Shown: positions 1 through 58,046 of the stretch, piece by piece
Layout: every line of letters begins with the position of its first letter
Numbering within the stretch: the stretch's first letter is position 1
Assembly: GCA_030650395.1 (NCBI GenBank)
Contig: JAUSDY010000076.1
Location: 64,090-128,089, forward strand
DNA: 64,000 nt
Source: Acidobacteriota bacterium
Lineage (GTDB): Bacteria; Acidobacteriota; Vicinamibacteria; Vicinamibacterales; UBA2999
Direction: 5' to 3'
Position numbers and translations under genes: made by a program
The notes under the pieces: generated by a model
The model's database searches: none
The model's input: only the letters and a program-made list of their open reading frames with translations
What the model was told of the DNA's origin: nothing

Positions 1-996
1 TGTTGGACATCGTCGTGAAATCGCTCAGACGCGTGCCGACGGCAATCACGACGTCGGCCTCGCGCGCGAGCCGGTTGGCCGCCAGCGTTCCCGTGACGCC
101 TATCGCGCCCGCCGCCAGCGGGTGATCCCAGGGAATCGAGCTCTTCCCCGCCTGGGTCTCGCCGACCGCGATGCCTGTCGCTTCGGCGAAGCGGCGCAAG
201 GCATCGGCGGCCTCGCTGTAGAGCACGCCGCCGCCGGCGATGATGAGCGGGCTGCGGCTGGATCGAATCGCCTCAGCCGCGCGCGCGATCGCCTCGGCAT
301 CGCCACGCGGCCGCGCGATCGTCCACACGCGCTCGTCAAAGAACGCCTCCGGATAGTCGAACGCTTCAGTCTGGGTGTCTTGCGGTAATGCCAGCGTCAC
401 GGCGCCGGTCTCGGCAGGCGAGGTCAGTACGCGCATGGCTTCCGGCAGCGACGTCAGCAGCTGCTCGGGACGATTGATTCGGTCCCAGTACCGCGACACC
501 GGACGAAAGCAATCGTTCACCGAGATGTCCTGGCTCTGGCTCGATTCGAGCTGCTGCAACACCGGCGCGGGCACGCGGTTGGCGAAGATGTCGCCGGGCA
601 ACAGCAGCACCGGCAGCCGATTGATCGTCGCTCCGGCGGCAGCCGTGATCATGTTGGTGGCGCCGGGGCCGATCGACGTCGTGCAGGCGAGCGTCCGCAA
701 CCGGTTCGACATTTTCGCAAACGCGGCCGCCGTGTGGACCATCGCCTGTTCGTTGCGGCATTGGTAATAGCGCACCCGGTCGCTCATCTGATCGAGCGCC
801 TGGCCGACGCCGGCGACGTTGCCGTGGCCGAATATCCCGAACACGCCGGCGAAGAACCGCTGCCGGCGGCCATCGCGCTCGGTGGCCTGTGCGCTCAAGA
901 ACCGCACCAGCGCCTGCGCCATCGTCAGGCGCCTCCGTGGGGACAAACCTTTCTTGTCCGCCGAAGCGCCCCGCGCGAAGGCGGAAGGTTTGTCCA

Positions 997-2107: not shown

Positions 2108-2238
2108 GGTTCTACACAACGGTTCCAGACGAGGGTTCCAGACGAGGGTTCCAGACGAAGGTTCTGGCACGATGGTTCTCGGAACCTTCGTTTGGAACCC
2201 TCGGGAGGAACCCCTGTGGGGAACCCTCGTGAGGAACC
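2108..2238. repeat. intergenic palindromic array of GGTTCC / GGAACC words
   Basis: GGTTCCAGACGAG occurs 3 times in tandem (2121-2159). It is followed by the inverted arm GGAACCTTCGTTTGGAACCCTCGGGAGGAACCCCTGTGGGGAACCCTCGTGAGGAACC. CCAGACGAAGGTTC pairs with GAACCTTCGTTTGG with 1 mismatch. Confidence 0.6.
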
Positions 2239-2252
2239 GGCGTCAGATCTAC

Positions 2253-3152
2253 CTATAGGCCCAACGAGCGCAAGAACGCACGATTACGCAACGCACTCTC
2301 TTTCGGCGTGCCGTCGCCAGGGAACACATCCTGTTCCACGACGACCCACCCGTCGTATTGATGACGGGTCAGCACCGAGAACACGGCCGCAAAGTCCACC
2401 GCACCCGTTCCCAGCTCGCAGAACAACTGCGAGCGGACCGCGGCGAGGTAACCGAGTCCCTGCGCGCGCGCGTCGCGCGCCACGACGGGATCGCAATCCT
2501 TGAAGTGGACGTGCCACACGCGCTCGGCATGCTGTTCGAACACACCCACTGGATCGCCACCGCCGTACATGATGTGCCCGGTGTCGAGCACCAGGCCGAC
2601 GAGCGATCGATCGGTGCGGCCCATCAGCTGATCGATCTCGTGCGGCGTCTCCACGTAGCCGCCACAGTGAGGATGAAATACCGTCCGCAAGCCGGTCTCA
2701 TCACGGACCGCGCGTGCCACCCGGTCCGCACCCGCCGCGAGCGTGGCCCACGCCGGCTCCTGCAGGCCGTGCTCGGCGGTGATGCGGCCGGCATGCCGCT
2801 CGCGCTCGGGCACGCGCGCGTTGTCATCCGACAGCACGATGAACGCGCCGCTCGCTCCGGCATCGTGCATCAGCCGCGCAGTCCGCACCGCGGTCGTCAC
2901 GCCCTCGTCTTGCGCGGCCGCGTTGGCGAGCGCCACCGGCACGAAGGCGCCCACCAGCTGCAGCTCTCGCGCCGCCAGTTCCGCGCCGAGCCGGGTGGGG
3001 TCGGTCGGCATGAAGCCCCAGTCGCCCAGCTCCGTTCCGGCGTATCCGGTTTGTGTGATCTCGTCGAGCACCGTTCCGTACGGCGCGGCGATGGACTGAC
3101 TGTCGAATTCCAGAATTCCCCAGGAGCACGGAGCGTTAGCGACGCGAATCAC
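2253..3152 (-). CDS. iolE: inosose dehydratase IolE-like (xylose-isomerase-like TIM barrel)
   Basis: 299 aa. The motifs LVLDTGHIMYGGGD, RVWHVHFKD, GTGAVDF and YDGWVVVEQD match the IolE pattern recalled from B. subtilis. It lies in iol context. Confidence 0.7.
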   Translation of the reverse strand: MIRVANAPCSWGILEFDSQSIAAPYGTVLDEITQTGYAGTELGDWGFMPTDPTRLGAELAARELQLVGAFVPVALANAAAQDEGVTTAVRTARLMHDAGASGAFIVLSDDNARVPERERHAGRITAEHGLQEPAWATLAAGADRVARAVRDETGLRTVFHPHCGGYVETPHEIDQLMGRTDRSLVGLVLDTGHIMYGGGDPVGVFEQHAERVWHVHFKDCDPVVARDARAQGLGYLAAVRSQLFCELGTGAVDFAAVFSVLTRHQYDGWVVVEQDVFPGDGTPKESALRNRAFLRSLGL

Positions 3153-3158
3153 AGGCGA

Positions 3159-4103
3159 ATGATACTATCCGCTCGCTTGGCGCCTCGAGTGTTGTTCCGA
3201 TCGTCGCCGCCTTCGCCGGGCCGTACGGGTACGACAGTGGAGATCACCCGCGCACGTGCCGGCTGGCGCTACGTGCACTTCGCGGTGCGGCAGATCGTTC
3301 CCGGCAAAACGTGGGTGCACGACACGGGCGCTGAAGAGTGCTGCCTGGTGCTGCTCGCGGGACTGTGCCGGGTTTCGTACAGGCACCCCATCAAGGGGCG
3401 CCCTACTAACACGGGGAGCGACGCGCCGGAGATCACCACCACGCTCGGTCCGCGCCGCAGCGTCTTTGCCGATTACCCGCACGCGCTCTATCTGCCGCCG
3501 CGGACATCATTTCGCGTGCAAGCCGACGTCGCCACCGAGCTCGCCGATGGGCGGGCGCCGTCGCGACAGCGTCTTCCACCCCAGCGCGGCTGCCGCGCCG
3601 GGGGCCCGGCTGAACCACGACACATCCGTCCGGAAGACTGCGGATTCGAAATTCGCGGCGGCGGCAACGCGACGCGGCAGATCGTCGATATCATGCCGCC
3701 GGCGTTCGCCGCCGATCGCCTGCTGGTCTGCGAGGTTTTCACGCCGGGCGGCAACTGGTCGAGCTATCCTCCGCACAAGCACGATCAGGATCGTCCGCCG
3801 GCCGAAGTGAAGCTCGAGGAAATCTATTACTACCGCTTCGAGCATCCTGATGCGTACGGGTTCCAGCGGCTTTATGATGGCCGCACCGATCGCACCGTCA
3901 CGGTCGGTCATGGCGATGTTGTAACGGTGAGATCCGGTTATCACCCGTTTGTCACGGCGTACGGATATAACGCTTACTACCTGAACGTCCTGGCCGGCAC
4001 GCGCCGCTCGATGGCGGCCAGCGACGATCCTCGTTATGCCGCGTTTCGGGCCTGGCCGCCGCCCGATCCGCGGGTGCCAATGCTGGCGCGGCCACTGAAG
4101 TAA
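3159..4103 (+). CDS. iolB: 5-deoxy-glucuronate isomerase IolB
   Basis: This is the C-terminal 314 codons of the 581-aa track ORF. Motifs are PPHKHDQD...EEIYYYRF...FQRLYD...TVGHGDVVTVRSGYHPFV...GYNAYYLNVLAG. The upstream 267 codons are antisense to iolE. The ATG at 3159 is in frame; GTG at 3237 is an alternative start. Confidence 0.85.
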   Translation: MILSARLAPRVLFRSSPPSPGRTGTTVEITRARAGWRYVHFAVRQIVPGKTWVHDTGAEECCLVLLAGLCRVSYRHPIKGRPTNTGSDAPEITTTLGPRRSVFADYPHALYLPPRTSFRVQADVATELADGRAPSRQRLPPQRGCRAGGPAEPRHIRPEDCGFEIRGGGNATRQIVDIMPPAFAADRLLVCEVFTPGGNWSSYPPHKHDQDRPPAEVKLEEIYYYRFEHPDAYGFQRLYDGRTDRTVTVGHGDVVTVRSGYHPFVTAYGYNAYYLNVLAGTRRSMAASDDPRYAAFRAWPPPDPRVPMLARPLK

Positions 4104-25993: not shown

Positions 25994-26118
25994 AGGAGAT
26001 CAGGAGGTTTTGGAGATCAGGAGAAATACCCTTCTGATCTCCACCCTCCTGCACTTCTGATTGCCCCGCGCAACTTTGGCACCAACCCTTGGCACCCTAG
26101 GCACATTAGGCACCCTAG
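25994..26118. repeat. word-repeat hairpin (GGAGATCAGGAG x2 / CTTCTGATCTCC) followed by GGCACC direct repeats
   Basis: GGAGATCAGGAG occurs at 25995 and 26012, with inverted copies at 26031-26062. GGCACC-type words occur 4 times in 26078-26118. The repeat lies between convergent genes. Confidence 0.55.
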
Positions 26119-28673
26119 TCTTGCCGGAGCGTGTTGGCCGGGTCGAGGCGAGCGGCGCGGCTGGCCGGAATTGCGGCGGCCACCAGGCAGGCCGCGATGA
26201 TGATGAGCAGACTCACGGCGTAGGCGACCGGATCGAGGACGTGAACGATCTCGCCAATGGTGGCGGCGGCCGGTGTGGCCAGCAGCAACGCGGCCAGTCC
26301 GGCGGCTGAACCGCCGCCGATGACGAGGCCGAAGACGACGGGCCGGATCGATTGCGACAGGACCAACCGCGTGACATCGTGCGTGGTCGCACCAAGCGCC
26401 ATGCGGACGCCGATTTCCTTGGTACGCTGCTCGACCAGGTACGACAGCACGCCGAACAGGCCCGACAGCGTCAGCGCCAGGGCCAGCCCGCCGAGCACGA
26501 CCGTCAACCAGAACGCGATCTGCAGGAAGTAGGTTTCCATCCTGGCCATTGTCCGCATGGTCAACACCTGGCCCATGCTGGGATCGATCGTGGTCAATCG
26601 ATTGAGGAGCGTCTGCCGTGCGAGTTCCGGATCGCCATGGACGCGAACGACGAGCGAGGTCTCGGCCATCGCGGCACTCGCCGGCACGTAGACGCCGGCC
26701 TCCTTGACGTCTGCCATTATCCGGAACCCTGCGACGTCCCGGACGACCCCCACCACCGTGAACGTTCGCGATTCGAGCGGCGGCTCCACCTTCGCGCCGG
26801 GCGCTACGGCGGACAAGTCGTCGACACGGCGCGTTTCGGAATCGGGATCGGGGTCGAGGCGCATGACCTGGCCGACCGCATCGCCATTCGGCCACAGGGC
26901 GCGCGCGGTCGTTTCGGAAACGACGGCTATCGAAAGACGCGACGTGCGCTCAGACGGCATGAACGTCCGCCCCCGCACCACCGCGATATCGAGCACGCTG
27001 AAGTAATCCGACGATACGAACTTGTATGCGACCGTTGCCTTTGCGCCGCCGGTTTCCGCAAACGCCGCTCGGGGTGGGGCGGCCATGTCCGGCCACGACG
27101 CGGCCACGGCGGCGACCGACGGGTCGGCCGTCACCGCCTGCACCATCGCGTTGCGGGTCGGCTCGTTCACGATCTCGACGATGACGGTGTCGGAGGTCCG
27201 CATGCCGGGATCGACCGTGGCGGAGGCAAACGCACTTCTCAGGAACACCGCCGCCGAGATCAGCAGCAGCGCCGACGCGCTCACCTGCAGGGCAATCAGG
27301 AAATTCCGCGCCCGTCCTGGCCGCGCGTCCCTGGCCACCTCGCCCCGGATCGTCCTGATCGGTTCGATGCGCGTGGCTTGCAAGGCGGGGGCGAGCCCGA
27401 AAAACACTGTCGAGACGCCGGCGCCAATGATGAGAAACAAGAGCACGCGCCAGTCCGCGTCGGGTACCGCCAATCGGACATCTCCGATATCGGCCGCCAT
27501 GCTGGTCATCACCCCGTAGATGATCGCCTCGAGCGCCACGCGCGAGATCGCGAAGCCGGCCGCGGCGGCCACGAGGGCCAGCAGCAGGCTCTCTGTCAAC
27601 AGCTGGCGGACGATTCGGCGCCGGGTGGCGCCAAGCGACAGCCGGATGCCAATCTCACGCTGTCGCGCCACTGCCCTGGCGAGGAGCAGGTTGGCGACGT
27701 TGGCACAGCCAATCAGCAGGATGAGGCCGAACGCAAAAAACAGGGGCGCGAACAAGAGCATCGCTTCAAGAGGCTGCGGCACGGTACCGCGCCTTGGTAC
27801 CAGCGTGATGTCCGAAGCGCGACGCTCGCCCGGGCGGGCGTTCGACCGGCCGGCATCCCAGACGGTGAGTCCCGCCAATGCCGTCTGCCGCGACATACCC
27901 GGCTTCAGGCGTCCGACGATGTCGAGGCCCACACTCGCTTCGCGGCCCCGATGGATCGGCCGAACCTGACCGAGCATCGAGAGCGGCGCCCAATAGTCCG
28001 GTGGACCGACGGCCAGGCCGCGAAATCCTTCGGGCATCACGCCGACGATCTCGAACGTCACGCCATTGACGAGCAGGCCGCGACCGAGAATGGCCGGGTC
28101 ACGCGCAAACTGCCGGTCCCATCCGTTGTGGCTGAGGACCATCACCGGTTGTCCCGCTTCGTCGTCGGCGGGCGTCAAGGCGCGTCCAATCGCGGCGTTG
28201 ACGCGGACCACCTGGAAGAAGTTGCCCGTGACGAGCGTGCCCGTCATCATGCGGCCGTCTACGCGGCCGTCGATGTCGGGGTTCTCCGCGTAGGCGTCGG
28301 TGAAGACCTGGGTGTCACGACGGAGCGCGTCGAATTGCGCGCGCGTGAAACGCAGGCGCTCGCCGTCGGAGGTTCGCGGCCGCTCCACCGCGAACATTTC
28401 GTCCACGCCGGGTACCTGATCGACGCGAAACAGGAACATGTTGAGCACCGTGAACGCCACGGCGACGAGGCCCAGCCCCAGCGCCACCGTTGACACGATG
28501 GTCAACGACACTAACGGAGCGCGCTGGAAGGTCCGAAACGCGTAGAGGATGTCGCGTACCGTGTTGTCGACGAATGCGGTGCCGCGCGCGTCGCGGCACT
28601 CGTCGGCGGCCAACGGCACGGGACCGAAGCGGGCGAGGGCGCGCGCACGCAGTTTCAGATCACGGACGTTCAT
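26115..28673 (-). CDS. ADOP-type (duplicated FtsX/MacB-like) ABC permease
   Basis: 852 aa with two FtsX-like 4-TM modules, each preceded by a large periplasmic domain. The N-terminal pattern RDILYAFRTFQRAPLVSLTIV is shared with the paralogues at 47646 and 52985. Confidence 0.9.
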   Translation of the reverse strand: MNVRDLKLRARALARFGPVPLAADECRDARGTAFVDNTVRDILYAFRTFQRAPLVSLTIVSTVALGLGLVAVAFTVLNMFLFRVDQVPGVDEMFAVERPRTSDGERLRFTRAQFDALRRDTQVFTDAYAENPDIDGRVDGRMMTGTLVTGNFFQVVRVNAAIGRALTPADDEAGQPVMVLSHNGWDRQFARDPAILGRGLLVNGVTFEIVGVMPEGFRGLAVGPPDYWAPLSMLGQVRPIHRGREASVGLDIVGRLKPGMSRQTALAGLTVWDAGRSNARPGERRASDITLVPRRGTVPQPLEAMLLFAPLFFAFGLILLIGCANVANLLLARAVARQREIGIRLSLGATRRRIVRQLLTESLLLALVAAAAGFAISRVALEAIIYGVMTSMAADIGDVRLAVPDADWRVLLFLIIGAGVSTVFFGLAPALQATRIEPIRTIRGEVARDARPGRARNFLIALQVSASALLLISAAVFLRSAFASATVDPGMRTSDTVIVEIVNEPTRNAMVQAVTADPSVAAVAASWPDMAAPPRAAFAETGGAKATVAYKFVSSDYFSVLDIAVVRGRTFMPSERTSRLSIAVVSETTARALWPNGDAVGQVMRLDPDPDSETRRVDDLSAVAPGAKVEPPLESRTFTVVGVVRDVAGFRIMADVKEAGVYVPASAAMAETSLVVRVHGDPELARQTLLNRLTTIDPSMGQVLTMRTMARMETYFLQIAFWLTVVLGGLALALTLSGLFGVLSYLVEQRTKEIGVRMALGATTHDVTRLVLSQSIRPVVFGLVIGGGSAAGLAALLLATPAAATIGEIVHVLDPVAYAVSLLIIIAACLVAAAIPASRAARLDPANTLRQD

Positions 28674-29921: not shown

Positions 29922-29997
29922 GGGCCAGTAGCGCAGTTGGGAGCGCGCATGAATGGCATTCATGAGGTCACCGGTTCGATCCCGGTCTGGTCCACCA
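29922..29997 (+). tRNA. tRNA-Ala (anticodon GGC)
   Basis: Cloverleaf folded by hand. The acceptor stem is GGGCCAG/CTGGTCC with the G3:U70 Ala identity pair. The D arm is GCGC-AGTTGGGA-GCGC. The anticodon arm is CATGA-ATGGCAT-TCATG. The T arm is ACCGG-TTCGATC-CCGGT, and CCA is encoded. Confidence 0.95.
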
Positions 29998-30301
29998 TCC
30001 TTCGCTCATGAATGCAGGCGAAGGATGCCCACCATAGCGCCGGAGGCGCGACGGTGGGCCCCAAGGCGTCCGAGCATGAGCTTCGGATGGCAGGCCCAGT
30101 CCCTGCTCAATCAATTCGGAGCTACGGTTGGCAGGTCACGTCGCTATCCTGGCTGAGCAACCGTCCGTAGTTCGCAGAATCTGCCATGCCGTCCCGGTAA
30201 CAGGCTCCCAATTCCTTCACCGCTCGGACTCCTCGCGAGCGCTTTCACACTGATTTTAAGGCCCTTTCCCTCAGGCATTCGTCTTGCGTCACAACGCGAG
30301 C

Positions 30302-30556
30302 ATGCCATTCCCTCAGACCATCGTCTACGTCATCAAGAGCGTGGCCGACCCGACTCGCTACTACACAGGTTTGACTTCTAACCTCGCTGTGCGGCTCGAC
30401 GCGCACAATGCCGGGCGTGTGCCCCACACCTCCGACGGTAAGCCTTGGATCATCGACGTTATCGTGGAGTTCTCCGACGAACGTCGTGCCGTTGCGTTCG
30501 AGAAATACCTGAAGTCTGGCTCGGGTGGCGCCTTCGCACGCCGACACCTCAGGTGA
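30302..30556 (+). CDS. GIY-YIG nuclease-superfamily small protein (YhbQ/UPF0213-like)
   Basis: MPFPQTIVYVIKSVADPTRYYTGLTSNLAVRLDAHNAGRVPHTSDGKPWIIDVIVEF..RRAVAFEKYLKSGSG matches the GIY..YIG..R..H..E..K pattern. Confidence 0.75.
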   Translation: MPFPQTIVYVIKSVADPTRYYTGLTSNLAVRLDAHNAGRVPHTSDGKPWIIDVIVEFSDERRAVAFEKYLKSGSGGAFARRHLR

Positions 30557-30688
30557 GGCTGCCGGAACACCTCTTGAGGGAAAGACACCTCCCGGAGTGC
30601 GTTCCCCCGTATTCCCCTTCGTTGTCCCCCATTTGCCAGGCTTTGACCAAAGTCGGCAGGGGCGAACCACTGCTAGAATTGGCCTGTT

Positions 30689-31285
30689 GTGGCTGCAGTC
30701 AAGATCGATCCTCTTGAGCTCACGGGACCGTGGGCTGAGGGCCACGTACTCGAGCGCCAGCACACGATCAGCAGCGAGTTCATCGGTCACGATTCGAACG
30801 GCCACGCACAGTTTGATACCAAGCGAAGCGAGCTCGGCGAGCTGGTATTTCGACTAAAGAACCGGAGTGACAAAGCAACCTTGGATCCGATCGCTGACAC
30901 AGCGGCGGAGTTCGTTCTCGCTTCTGGTATTCAGTTCGATGCCGTGGTCCCGGTGCCACCGTCTCGACGCCGAGCTTTCCAGCCGGTCGTAGAGATCGCG
31001 ACTGCCCTTGGCGCCCGGCTCGCGAAACCGGTTTTGATGAGCGTGGTCTCCAAGGTGAAAGAAACTCCGGAGCTCAAGGACGTGTTCGATTTCAGTGAAC
31101 GTCAGAAGCTGCTGCAGGGCGCATTCGCTGTTGATAAGGAAGCCGCCAAGGGCCAGCGCCTGCTTCTCATCGATGACCTCTACCGATCAGGAGCTACGGC
31201 AGCCCTCGTCGCGAAGGAACTCTCGGAAGCTGGAGCAGCAGCCGTCTATTTCCTTGCCATGACGAAGACTCGGACCCGATCATGA
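30689..31285 (+). CDS. ComF/ComFC-like phosphoribosyltransferase-family protein lacking the ComF zinc finger
   Basis: 198 aa with a GTG start. The PRTase core is VVPVPPSRRRAFQPVVEIA...GQRLLLIDDLYRSGATAALVAKELSEAGAAAVYFLAMTK (the acidic-hydrophobic-DD-x-x-SGAT PRPP loop). An extended -10 (TGcTAGAAT) lies at 30671-30679. Confidence 0.75.
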   Translation: MAAVKIDPLELTGPWAEGHVLERQHTISSEFIGHDSNGHAQFDTKRSELGELVFRLKNRSDKATLDPIADTAAEFVLASGIQFDAVVPVPPSRRRAFQPVVEIATALGARLAKPVLMSVVSKVKETPELKDVFDFSERQKLLQGAFAVDKEAAKGQRLLLIDDLYRSGATAALVAKELSEAGAAAVYFLAMTKTRTRS

Positions 31286-31818
31286 CGAAGGTCTTCATCG
31301 CTGGTTCCCGACAGATTGCTCAGCTTCCGGCCGAGGTGAGGAGCCGCATCGACACGATGGTCGAGAAGGGTTTTCAGATCCTTGTCGGCGACGCCAACGG
31401 TGCCGACAAGGCCGTCCAGCGATACTTGGCCGACAGGGCGTACCCGAACGTCCTCGTGCACTGCATGGAGAACCATTGCCGAAACAATGTTGGCGCGTGG
31501 CCCACGTTCCAAGTCGCCTCCCCTCAGGGCGCTCGCGGCTTCGACTATTACTCGCTTAAGGACCGCGCAATGGCCGACGCTGCCGAGTACGGCCTGATGC
31601 TCTGGGATGGAAAGAGCAAAGGAACCATCAACAATGTTCTCAACCTGTCGCGTGATAACAAGCTTGTCGTCGTTTACGTGGCACCTGCGAAGAGCTTCCA
31701 GACAGTTCGGTCCGCTGAGGATCTCAAGGCTCTCCTAACGAAGGGTGACCCATCGAGCGTTGGCAAATTGGTGCACGAACTTCACTTGGATTACCTGCAA
31801 GCCAATGCGGCGGGATAG
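31282..31818 (+). CDS. DprA-like / SLOG-superfamily Rossmann protein
   Basis: The start forms an ATGA overlap with the PRTase gene. VFIAGSRQ...GFQILVGDANGADKAVQRYL...LKDRAMADAAEYGLMLWDGKSKGTINNVLNL parallels the DprA core (VGSR...SGlArGIDaaAH...RNRiia..S....EA...SGsL.TA). Confidence 0.7.
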   Translation: MTKVFIAGSRQIAQLPAEVRSRIDTMVEKGFQILVGDANGADKAVQRYLADRAYPNVLVHCMENHCRNNVGAWPTFQVASPQGARGFDYYSLKDRAMADAAEYGLMLWDGKSKGTINNVLNLSRDNKLVVVYVAPAKSFQTVRSAEDLKALLTKGDPSSVGKLVHELHLDYLQANAAG

Positions 31819-32024
31819 CCGAAATAAGAACTGGGCGGCCTACTGCTTAGGCGTTGGACTAGAATCGGTCAGATCTGACCATGGCAAGGCGAAGGGAAGC
31901 CAATCAGGCGCTAGGCAGCGTCCTCCTATTTATCATCGCTCTGCCAATCTTCTTCGCCGATTGGGTTCAAGAGACACTTGGTATGCGTGCTCGCGTCTTC
32001 GATGAGAGGGGTCTTCGCATCCGA

Positions 32025-32351
32025 TCATGTCTCCTGGGACTCGATCGCGGAGATACCAGCCAGAATCACAGGATCTTGGTTCGGGAACTCCGCCACAAGC
32101 GACAGTCGCCCCCCCATTGCCTCCACGTATCCACGCAGCGTGGAAATCAAGAGGTCGCTACGCTGCTCAAGTCTGGACACGCTGTCCTGGCCAATACCAA
32201 GGACCACAGCCATTCGCTTCTGCGTCAACTTGTGCGCTTGCCGCAGTTCCTGAAGTGTCTTTTCTTCAGCGATCAACGTAGCAGCGCGTGCTGCAATCTT
32301 CTTGCGGCGAGCAGGGCTCAGCTGCTTTCGAATCTGATCTAGATTCTTCAT
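32025..32351 (-). CDS. XRE-family HTH antitoxin (HigA-like)
   Basis: 108 aa. LQELRQAHKLTQKRMAVVLGIGQDSVSRLEQRSD is an XRE HTH. The start forms an ATGA overlap with the upstream toxin gene. Confidence 0.8.
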   Translation of the reverse strand: MKNLDQIRKQLSPARRKKIAARAATLIAEEKTLQELRQAHKLTQKRMAVVLGIGQDSVSRLEQRSDLLISTLRGYVEAMGGRLSLVAEFPNQDPVILAGISAIESQET

Positions 32352-32746
32352 GATCTTTGTTTCCCCTTCTTCGTCGCGCCTCTAGTCGTTTTGGTCTTCT
32401 TCACAATTGCGAGATGAGTATCGAAACGACCATCTGCTCTTTCAATTAGCTGCCTGTAGAACCGTTTTTCGCTACCACCGGATTTGTCTCCACCGCACAG
32501 CACGATGGCTCTGCGGTTTGGATCGAATGCGAAGGCGAAACGCCAGACGCCGTCCGCGGCATCGAAACGCAATTCCTTCATATTCTTGTGTCGAGAACCG
32601 TTGAGCGTATCCACGCGTGGACGTCCGAGTTGCGGCCCAAAGACCTCAAGAACAGCAACATGCGCAAGAAGTTCGTCCTGGACGTCTTCGGGGAGCACAT
32701 TGAACTCAGCCACGAACTTGTCGTGCAGGTCTACGACCCAACCCAC
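32348..32746 (-). CDS. RelE/HigB-superfamily toxin (Gp49/DUF891-like)
   Basis: 132 aa. The motif is MKELRFDAADGVWRFAFAFDPNRRAIVLCGGDKSG..EKRFYRQLIERADGRFDTHL, and the protein has a basic C-terminal tail. Confidence 0.75.
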   Translation of the reverse strand: MGWVVDLHDKFVAEFNVLPEDVQDELLAHVAVLEVFGPQLGRPRVDTLNGSRHKNMKELRFDAADGVWRFAFAFDPNRRAIVLCGGDKSGGSEKRFYRQLIERADGRFDTHLAIVKKTKTTRGATKKGKQRS

Positions 32747-32979
32747 GGCCCATTATGGCATGCGACGCATATGTAGTCCAGACCATATTCTGCCGGCGAT
32801 TATGGGCCGTCCCGCTTTGAGCGTCATTGCCGTTAAGCTGAGACGAACAGAGTTCGAGACGAGGCTCAGGGTTCCAACTGCGAAGCTGTGGGTCCACCAT
32901 CTTCCTTCGCCGGCTGCGGCCGTCTCCAGCCCCCTGAAATCGTTTGACGCGGACGCCGCGCGGGCTTACGCTCCCGTGC

Positions 32980-57950: not shown

Positions 57951-58046
57951 TGGCGGAAGCGCCTGGGAGTCGAACCCAGCCTGCCCCACAAGGAGGCAGC
58001 GACCGATTTTGAAGACCGGGGGGGCCACCGGGCCCCGTTCGCTTCC
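57951..58046 (-). tRNA. selC: tRNA-Sec (selenocysteine, anticodon UCA)
   Basis: The minus-strand sequence is GGAAGCGAACGGGGCCCGGTGGCCCCCCCGGTCTTCAAAATCGGTCGCTGCCTCCTTGTGGGGCAGGCTGGGTTCGACTCCCAGGCGCTTCCGCCA. It has a long acceptor stem, a 6-bp D stem with the CGGT loop, a CTTCAAA anticodon loop and a long variable arm. It is colinear with E. coli selC as I recall it. Confidence 0.9.

Follow-up and report, generated by a model that had tools for sequence, protein, structure and literature searches.

The window examined here, a stretch of 64,000 nucleotides from an Acidobacteriota genome (contig JAUSDY010000076.1, positions 64,090 to 128,089), carries two small overlapping genes, which we call A and B and which look like a minimal, unnamed relative of the ShosTA and PsyrTA systems without being a member of either. 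Gene A encodes a ComF-clade type I phosphoribosyltransferase (PRTase), and gene B a minimal DprA-like SLOG Rossmann domain of an undescribed clade. We consider it likely that the two form an autonomous toxin-antitoxin (TA) cassette of the addiction or abortive-infection type, that is, a system of the ShosTA/PsyrTA kind cut down to its two core domains. The scheme is proposed because A is homologous to PsyrT and ShosT, B is homologous to ShosA, PsyrA and DprA, and the operon logic is identical. It is further supported by the way in which the pair is lost, since B was found without A while intact A was never found with a disrupted B.

Two coupled single-domain genes

Evidence from profiles, structure prediction and motifs placed A among the PRTases. 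Residues 47-192 aligned to positions 43-189 of the ComF model TIGR00201 in NCBIfam (2e-12), with a score of 47.5 bits that is far under the 233.55-bit cutoff, and the protein was also below threshold for Pfam Pribosyltran (PF00156; 20.9 bits against 26.3) and PRTase_3. The phosphoribosyl pyrophosphate (PRPP) loop LLLIDDLYRSGAT, in particular D162, D163 and SGAT, and the pyrophosphate (PPi)-loop region VPVPPSRRRAFQP (PPSRxR..QP) were invariant in 21 homologues of A. There are zero cysteines in A, so the Cys4 zinc finger of ComF is absent. Foldseek searches with an AlphaFold2 model (predicted local distance difference test, pLDDT, 86.7) matched PurF, OPRT and APRT at 1e-7 to 1e-4 (3.6e-7 for the PurF PRTase domain), together with ShosT (8zvd, 1.6e-4) and Helicobacter pylori ComF (7p0h, 1e-3). 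The PADLOC models gave PsyrT at 7.3e-19, confined to C-terminal positions 526-686 of 689, and a weak ShosT match at 1.9e-6, and hhalign against a bona fide PsyrT (locus L180) returned a probability of 97.5% and an E-value of 7.7e-12 over 126 columns. Judged by sequence, the nearest relative of A is thus the C-terminal domain of PsyrT and not ShosT.

Gene B had no usable match in Pfam, NCBIfam, PADLOC or the PDB sequences. Hits to Pfam DUF4978 and DUF5356 were below threshold and were dismissed, and a profile of 59 B homologues run against the PDB sequences returned nothing above noise, the hits being SpoVT and a head decoration protein at E>0.2. The fold was instead recognised from an AlphaFold2 model built with the 59 homologues (pLDDT 94.4), which begins at strand beta1 and forms a single domain. 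Foldseek ranked ShosA first among PDB structures (8zva, 1e-5), followed by H. pylori DprA, YpsA, the ADP-ribose-binding MHR1/2 region of TRPM2, a molybdenum cofactor (MoCo) carrier protein, ThsA and LOG, and the top matches among the viral models of BFVD were phage DprA-like and DUF2493/YspA SLOG proteins. The model is Rossmannoid and has the glycine-rich loop after beta2 and the G-[ST]-type loop after beta4 that define the SLOG fold.

Profile alignments linked B only remotely to PsyrA (hhalign E 0.009) and to Escherichia coli Smf (E 0.15), with the motifs in register in both cases: GSR, GDANGAD and DGKSKGT of B align with the DprA-type GSR, GxARGxD and SGKxGGT. Through a PsyrA-ShosA alignment, Arg10 of the B GSR motif maps to R156 of PsyrA and R139 of ShosA. 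Eleven invariant polar residues (S9, R10, D37, D42, Q46, R67, N69, K93, D94, S112 and N118) lie in loops at the C-terminal strand ends, and B is basic (isoelectric point 8.85; family median 9.2). Among the 59 family members, Pfam DNA_processg_A was matched weakly by 16 (sub-threshold, best 1.1e-3) and YAcAr/DUF2493 weakly by nine; the Pfam model for YpsA (DUF1273) was unmatched by them. LOG-type phosphoribohydrolases carry the motif PGGxGTxxE with a catalytic Glu. At the corresponding site B reads DGKSKGTINN, with Asn117 and Asn118 where that Glu would be.

These results agree with much of the initial annotation, which had described two genes joined by an ATGA overlap, quoted the motifs that we find in A (LLLIDDLYRSGAT) and in B (VFIAGSR, VGDANGAD and LWDGKSKGT), and taken A for a ComF-like PRTase without the zinc finger and B for a DprA-like SLOG protein. 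An unrelated fold for B had been named as one outcome that would speak against it, and Foldseek places B in the SLOG/DprA-like fold. The suggested PADLOC search recognised A through PsyrT and ShosT and did not recognise B. The "uncharacterised ~90-aa N-domain" given to A was an overstatement: residues 1-46, which are beta-rich and predicted as four beta-strands, are family-specific, and what follows aligns with the ComF model.

Both genes are real, as indicated by strong purifying selection in comparison with five relatives (dN/dS 0.08-0.14 for A and 0.05-0.19 for B) and by the conserved overlap, a -4 junction of the ATGA type that was kept in 114 of ~140 homologous loci. The overlap of the A stop with the B start would give translational coupling of the two genes. 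Upstream of A, the T-A--AT core of an extended -10-like element, TGCTAGAAT, and the start codon were invariant in an alignment of seven diverse loci. No Shine-Dalgarno sequence and no operator-like inverted repeat were found upstream of A, and a sigma-70 scan of the same region called no promoter, with no -35 element at 16-18 nt from TGCTAGAAT. The conservation of this element nine nucleotides before the start, together with the missing Shine-Dalgarno sequence, suggests a leaderless-type transcript: A-B would be transcribed from TGCTAGAAT, its probable promoter, with little or no leader. A weak hairpin past B may, with low confidence, mark the transcript end; the consensus scan that found it counted no more terminator-like hairpins than in shuffled sequence.

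When the window was aligned with its closest relatives (85% and 81% identical), the homologous stretch ran from 30592/30622 to ~31800, so that it is limited to ~70-100 nt upstream of A on one side and the end of B on the other. By this alignment, the promoter region, A and B make up a conserved, self-contained unit of ~1.2 kb with no third gene.

Distribution, loss and genomic setting

The family is large. We found 2129 B clusters at 50% identity (E<=1e-3), and a word-indexed search returned 3968 relatives of B and 1008 of A. The pair is common among soil bacteria and plasmids, with thousands of metagenomic clusters, and it extends beyond Acidobacteriota to Proteobacteria, Firmicutes and Cyanobacteria, plasmids included. 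The "acidobacterial-type" origin that had been suggested thus holds for the copy in the window, whose A matches a GenBank "ComF family protein" of an Acidobacteriota metagenome-assembled genome (MAG) at 100% identity, and not for the family as a whole.

Gene order was constant, in line with the co-occurrence and co-linearity expected by the initial annotation. In each of ten independent contig contexts B followed A, the two genes either overlapping or lying a few bases apart. In a scan of metagenomes anchored on A, B followed directly downstream in all 76 loci having sequence past A; three further loci stopped at a contig edge, and one held a decayed A and no B. A complementary scan anchored on B covered the best 80 of 349 loci in GTDB species genomes. 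Both genes were intact in 48 of these loci, while an intact B accompanied an A remnant in eight, a frame-split A in eight and no A at all in six; intact A with disrupted B was found in none. In all, B was intact with A missing or decayed in 14 to 22 of the 80 loci. Retention of B without A, and never of intact A with a disrupted B, is the pattern expected if A is a toxin and B its antitoxin. Three of the copies of B without A lie beside McrBC (L031), a RecD-like superfamily 1 helicase (L061) and a type IIG Eco57I/MmeI-like methylase (L069), and these may be orphan antitoxins or represent alternative partnerships.

The cassette is found in mobile settings. Plasmids carry it in Klebsiella, Agrobacterium, Xanthomonas, Sinorhizobium and Listeria innocua, and in a few E. 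coli (5 of 5426 genomes); in Neisseria gonorrhoeae it is chromosomal. In Klebsiella, where ~20 plasmids have the pair, it is near repA of IncFII/IncR plasmids; the proteins of one Klebsiella plasmid copy are WP_016528968 and WP_016528967. One example is the K. pneumoniae clinical plasmid NZ_CP142406.1 (L173, 53318-54456), on which A-B lies ~1.4 kb from the IncFII repA and is annotated as a ComF family protein and a hypothetical protein. Such a position is a typical site for an addiction module. Elsewhere, the neighbours of the pair include large serine recombinases, transposases, McrBC, SduA_C, NYN and nSTAND genes. Among GenBank phages, B was unmatched and A had only weak PRTase matches, so the cassette is not evidently phage-borne.

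In some homologues the B domain is fused to another domain, namely an "addiction module antidote" helix-turn-helix (HTH) on Agrobacterium plasmids and in P0375, Abi_alpha, HEPN_AbiU2, NADAR or DUF4326. The NADAR and DUF4326 fusions were on short contigs, and no PRTase was seen there. One DUF4326-B fusion (L178, 841-1935) is immediately preceded by a canonical DprA-like open reading frame (ORF; 2-751), placing two different SLOG proteins in tandem. At L179, a homologue of A (168-2227) is followed by a B-Abi_alpha fusion of 491 aa (2224-3465), and the two directly adjoin a SocA_Panacea/SocB TA cluster.

In the window, the pair occupies an islet at ~30000-32900 with a GC content of 0.52-0.60 against 0.64-0.70 in the flanks, downstream of a tRNA-Ala gene (Table 1). 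At least eight other acidobacterial loci (L006, L007/8, L018, L019, L020, L022, L053 and L093) have this tRNA-Ala ahead of the pair, at distances from 80 nt to 3 kb and with differing cargo in the gap, so the tRNA is a hotspot of repeated integration. A search of the window for att-type direct repeats of the 3' end of the tRNA bounding the islet found none. A MacB/FtsX-type ABC permease (26115-28673, minus strand) lies upstream of the hotspot, and a similar MacB_PCD/FtsX permease is found upstream in L006 and L007, so that chromosomal synteny is conserved around a variable islet. The mobile, defence-like setting proposed by the initial annotation is therefore borne out by the low-GC tRNA islet, the plasmids and the recombinase and restriction neighbours. 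The GIY-YIG gene and TA module that it had placed on either side are also present. However, they are outside the conserved unit, and because homology stops short of them we regard the GIY-YIG gene and the HigBA-like pair as independent occupants of the hotspot. The former was rejected as a third component, since it is outside the unit and is found on the other, downstream side of the pair in L093; homologues were also beside the same tRNA in L034 and L042. The HigB/HigA-like genes at 32025-32746 on the minus strand are an ordinary type II TA pair inside the same islet. Far from the islet, ARAGORN predicted a tRNA-Sec (anticodon TCA) at 57951-58046 on the minus strand.

Table 1. Features of the A-B locus and its islet in window coordinates; residue numbers refer to the protein named.
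Feature	Position (nt)	Residues	Strand	Remarks
tRNA-Ala(GGC)	29922-29997			beside the low-GC islet, upstream of A-B
GIY-YIG ORF	30284-30556		+	small, YhbQ-like; next after tRNA-Ala; Pfam 3.8e-12
Extended -10-like element TGCTAGAAT	30671..30679		+	9 nt before the GTG of A; read from sequence; probable promoter
Gene A	30689..31285		+	GTG start, 198 aa
PPi-loop region of A, VPVPPSRRRAFQP	30947-30985	87-99
PRPP loop of A, LLLIDDLYRSGAT	31160-31198	158-170		includes D162/D163 and SGAT
ATGA overlap	31282..31285		+	stop of A and start of B; read from sequence
Gene B	31282..31818		+	ATG start, 178 aa
GSR motif of B	31303-31311	8-10
GDANGAD motif of B	31387-31407	36-42
CRNNVGAW motif of B	31477-31500	66-73		family-specific
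WDGKSKGT motif of B	31603-31626	108-115
C-terminal helical tail of B		145-177
Terminator-like hairpin with T-rich tail	31907..31932		+	weak; ~90 nt past B; consensus scan only
HTH_37/Xre antitoxin gene	32025-32351		-	4-nt overlap with the Gp49/HigB-like gene
Gp49/HigB-like toxin gene	32348-32746		-	Pfam 7.3e-21

A proposed toxin-antitoxin cassette and its alternatives

In the scheme that we favour, A would be the toxin. It would bind Mg-PRPP through D162/D163 and the SGAT loop and either transfer or merely consume the phosphoribosyl group, with the expected effect that the nucleotide pool is disturbed and DNA replication damaged. B would be the antitoxin, translationally coupled to A on a shared leaderless-type transcript, and would probably neutralise A indirectly, in a type IV-like manner and without sequestering it, through capture of ssDNA (single-stranded DNA) or a nucleotide-like ligand by its conserved pocket (Arg10 of GSR, GxAxGxD and xGKSxGT). 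Were B lost or titrated, whether through loss of the plasmid or island, host shut-off or a build-up of phage ssDNA, A would kill or arrest the cell.

All that is said here about toxicity, mode of neutralisation, trigger and phage defence is inferred, by homology with ShosTA and PsyrTA. The toxicity of ShosT requires PRPP binding and is abolished by D331A/D332A, and the toxin upsets purine metabolism, damages DNA and makes cells filament (PMC11961720, PMC12961424). The invariant DD pair of A is equivalent to ShosT D331/D332, which supports A as the toxin. ShosA does not bind ShosT, and neutralisation needs ssDNA binding, dimerisation and interaction with RecA (PMC11961720, PMC12961424); R139 is essential for both ssDNA binding and antitoxin activity (PMC12961424), and the mapping of B Arg10 onto this residue supports B as the antitoxin. 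Two triggers have been proposed for ShosTA: phage ssDNA, and the shut-off of the host by T7 Gp0.7 acting together with the instability of ShosA (PMC11961720, PMC12961424). We also counted the addiction and defence context in favour of a TA cassette, including repA, the antidote-HTH fusion, recombinases, McrBC, SduA_C, nSTAND, the type IIG restriction-modification neighbour and the HigB/HigA-like pair.

Several points weigh against this assignment. The case for toxicity and protection is made from genomics throughout. B was unmatched by the PADLOC models of ShosA and PsyrA, and its sequence link to DprA and PsyrA is weak (E 0.009-0.15). The second essential arginine of ShosA, R234, has no secure counterpart in B in the PsyrA alignment, and B has no SAM domain, so that the route taken by ShosA, which is recruitment of RecA, may not apply. 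The acceptor substrate is unknown even for ShosT (PMC12961424). Some B homologues are fused to the effector-like Abi_alpha and HEPN_AbiU2, which would fit a sensor as well as an antitoxin. Finally, some of the "split" or "partial" copies of A may be frameshift artefacts of MAGs or long reads, or simply have divergent N-termini, and thus may not reflect true decay; the asymmetry nevertheless runs in the direction predicted for a toxin and its antitoxin.

The pair could also act in the manner of DarT-DarG, with A placing the ribose-5-phosphate of PRPP on a DNA or RNA base, a nucleotide or a protein, and B serving as an N-glycosidase (a phosphoribohydrolase like those of the LOG branch of SLOG), a dedicated eraser or scavenger that removes the adduct and makes the modification a reversible switch. 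SLOG enzymes of the LOG clade cleave the bond between base and ribose-5-phosphate, which is the reverse of the PRTase reaction (established knowledge; summarised in PMC9503650). Near homologues of B are fused to DUF4326 and to NADAR, a ribosyl N-glycosidase, and the supplement of the DefensePredictor paper (PMC13092281) lists "NADR", in which a PRTase is paired with a NADAR protein. The many invariant polar residues at the strand ends of B could likewise suit an enzyme. We nevertheless think this unlikely, since B lacks the catalytic Glu of LOG enzymes and has N117/N118 in its place, its motifs follow the non-catalytic pattern of DprA and PsyrA, it is structurally nearest to ShosA and DprA and not to LOG, and the NADAR-B fusion that we examined had no PRTase neighbour. 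If it were true, the pair would be the phosphoribosyl counterpart of DarT/DarG and would reveal the acceptor chemistry of the whole ComF/ShosT/PsyrT/retron-III PRTase clade, including the ComFC of transformation. Somewhat less probable, in our estimate, is a nucleotide-centric signalling role in which A of an infected cell makes a phosphoribosyl nucleotide signal that the SLOG domain of B senses to switch on an effector. SLOG domains are ligand sensors in Thoeris ThsA (for cyclic ADP-ribose isomers) and in TRPM2, both of which are among the structural matches of B, and the Abi_alpha and HEPN_AbiU2 fusions, one of them with an A homologue directly upstream, would provide effectors. However, B in the window consists of the SLOG domain alone (~180 aa) and has no effector attached, as is true of most of its family; a third gene is missing from the conserved unit; and the loss asymmetry, with B often lacking A and A never lacking B, is expected of a toxin and antitoxin instead.

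Two further roles seem very improbable. One is a housekeeping role in natural transformation, in which A and B, as a divergent ComFC and DprA, would jointly handle incoming ssDNA. Annotation pipelines do name A a "ComF family protein", ComFC and DprA both function in transformation (PMC9005727), and B has the GSR and GxAxGxD motifs of DprA. Against this, the Cys4 zinc finger is absent from A, whose 47.5 bits fall far short of the 233.55 demanded by TIGR00201, B fails Pfam DNA_processg_A and is missing the SAM and C-terminal domains of DprA, and the distribution is patchy and mobile (the low-GC tRNA islet, plasmids by repA, antidote-HTH fusions, and recombinase and restriction neighbours). The other role, to which we give equally little credence, is a nucleotide salvage or other metabolic pair with no part in conflict. 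PRTases and LOG-type SLOG enzymes both belong to nucleotide metabolism, but the same mobility, plasmid and neighbourhood evidence speaks against it, and no metabolic genes are conserved around the pair.

A TA cassette of this kind would matter for several reasons. We know of no acceptor substrate for the PRTase toxins (ShosT, PsyrT, the effectors of type III retrons and OpnC) or for ComFC. A-B consists of two small single-domain proteins, with no helicase, PPase or SAM domain to complicate biochemistry, and this reduction may make it the simplest model for asking about both the PRTase acceptor and neutralisation. How a DprA-like antitoxin neutralises a toxin that it does not bind is only partly understood (PMC12961424). 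The family is large yet unannotated as a system, with more than 2000 B clusters at 50% identity, and because the PADLOC-DB v2 models miss the pair, defence and TA censuses undercount it. It is also present in the clinic, near repA on conjugative plasmids of Klebsiella and E. coli and on the N. gonorrhoeae chromosome, and the cassette may contribute to plasmid stability in clinical Enterobacteriaceae.

Comparison with known systems

Four established families were considered for the pair or its members and rejected. Membership of A in ComFC is contradicted by the absence of Cys and by its TIGR00201 score, and that of B in DprA/Smf by its single domain and the unmatched Pfam DNA_processg_A. Replacement of the catalytic Glu by Asn117/Asn118 sets B apart from LOG-type phosphoribohydrolases. 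A type III retron was excluded because Rfam found no non-coding RNA besides the tRNA; the neighbours are only GIY-YIG, HTH and Gp49 genes, and the conserved unit is A and B. The likeness to the ComFC and DprA of natural transformation is one of superfamily, with motifs in common. The differences are the missing zinc finger of A, the missing SAM and DML1 domains of B, scores under the family cutoffs, and the mobility of the cassette, while competence genes do not usually sit side by side. Our searches of the literature for experimental work on the minimal pair or a name for it, including by the Klebsiella accessions and by "ComF family protein", found none.

Two further pairings are similar in outline, each compared by description only. 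The YpsA-family and PRTase gene pair of Brzozowski, Burroughs, Aravind et al. (2019) is a SLOG protein that comparative genomics strongly couples to a PRTase gene, and in that paper the branch is predicted to belong to nucleotide-centred conflict systems (PMC6459960). Members of the B family miss DUF1273, and the branch described there may or may not be the A-B family. "NADR", from the supplementary tables of the DefensePredictor study of validated defence systems (PMC13092281), also has two genes, a PRTase of the defence clade and a protein predicted to act on ribosyl-base linkages, and some B homologues are themselves NADAR fusions. Its partner has the NADAR and not the SLOG fold, and its PRTase is 343 aa long and of the retron type III kind.

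The closest systems are ShosTA and PsyrTA, each composed of a toxin with a PRTase domain and a DprA-like antitoxin (Millman 2022 preprint). The initial annotation had pointed to DprA-PPRT (Rousset 2022), another name for ShosTA (Millman 2022 preprint), as catalogued kin. This was right in that the nearest systems are pairs of a PRTase and a DprA-like protein, although A-B is itself a member of neither; the accompanying remark that no mechanism was known is outdated, as structures and a partial mechanism of ShosTA have been published (PMC11961720, PMC12961424). ShosTA is a type IV TA system acting by abortive infection. It shares with A-B the combination of PRTase toxin and DprA-like antitoxin, and A keeps the catalytic DD pair, B the ssDNA-binding Arg of G-x-R. 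Among solved structures B is matched best by ShosA, and ShosT is one of the matches of A. In contrast to A, ShosT (424 aa) has an N-terminal pyrophosphatase (PPase)-like hydrolase domain (PMC11961720), and ShosA has an N-terminal SAM domain that B lacks. The ShosT model is matched only weakly by A (1.9e-6) and the ShosA model not at all by B.

PsyrTA (RqlHI) has a toxin whose C-terminal ComF-like PRTase domain is homologous to A and a DprA-like antitoxin whose GSR, GxAxGxD and GKxGGT motifs are in register with B. Its toxin-then-antitoxin order and 4-nt overlap are those of A-B, and it is similarly found on plasmids and in defence islands. A bona fide example on the E. coli IncF plasmid NZ_OX030731.1 (L180, 37352-40869) encodes a PsyrT of 710 aa, which matches the PADLOC PsyrT model end to end (E=0), and a PsyrA of 462 aa with the 4-nt overlap; it interrupts a type I restriction-modification operon between hsdS and hsdR. 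PsyrT, at ~700 aa, carries an N-terminal RecQ-like superfamily 2 helicase, whereas A is the PRTase domain alone. PsyrA, at ~400-460 aa, matches the PsyrA (6e-174) and ShosA (2.7e-28) models, whereas neither model matched the 178-aa B or two plasmid homologues (E<=0.1 / 0.01). The architecture of a PRTase and a DprA-like protein in TA and defence systems is therefore already known, and what is new here is its minimal form, free of the helicase, PPase and SAM domains.

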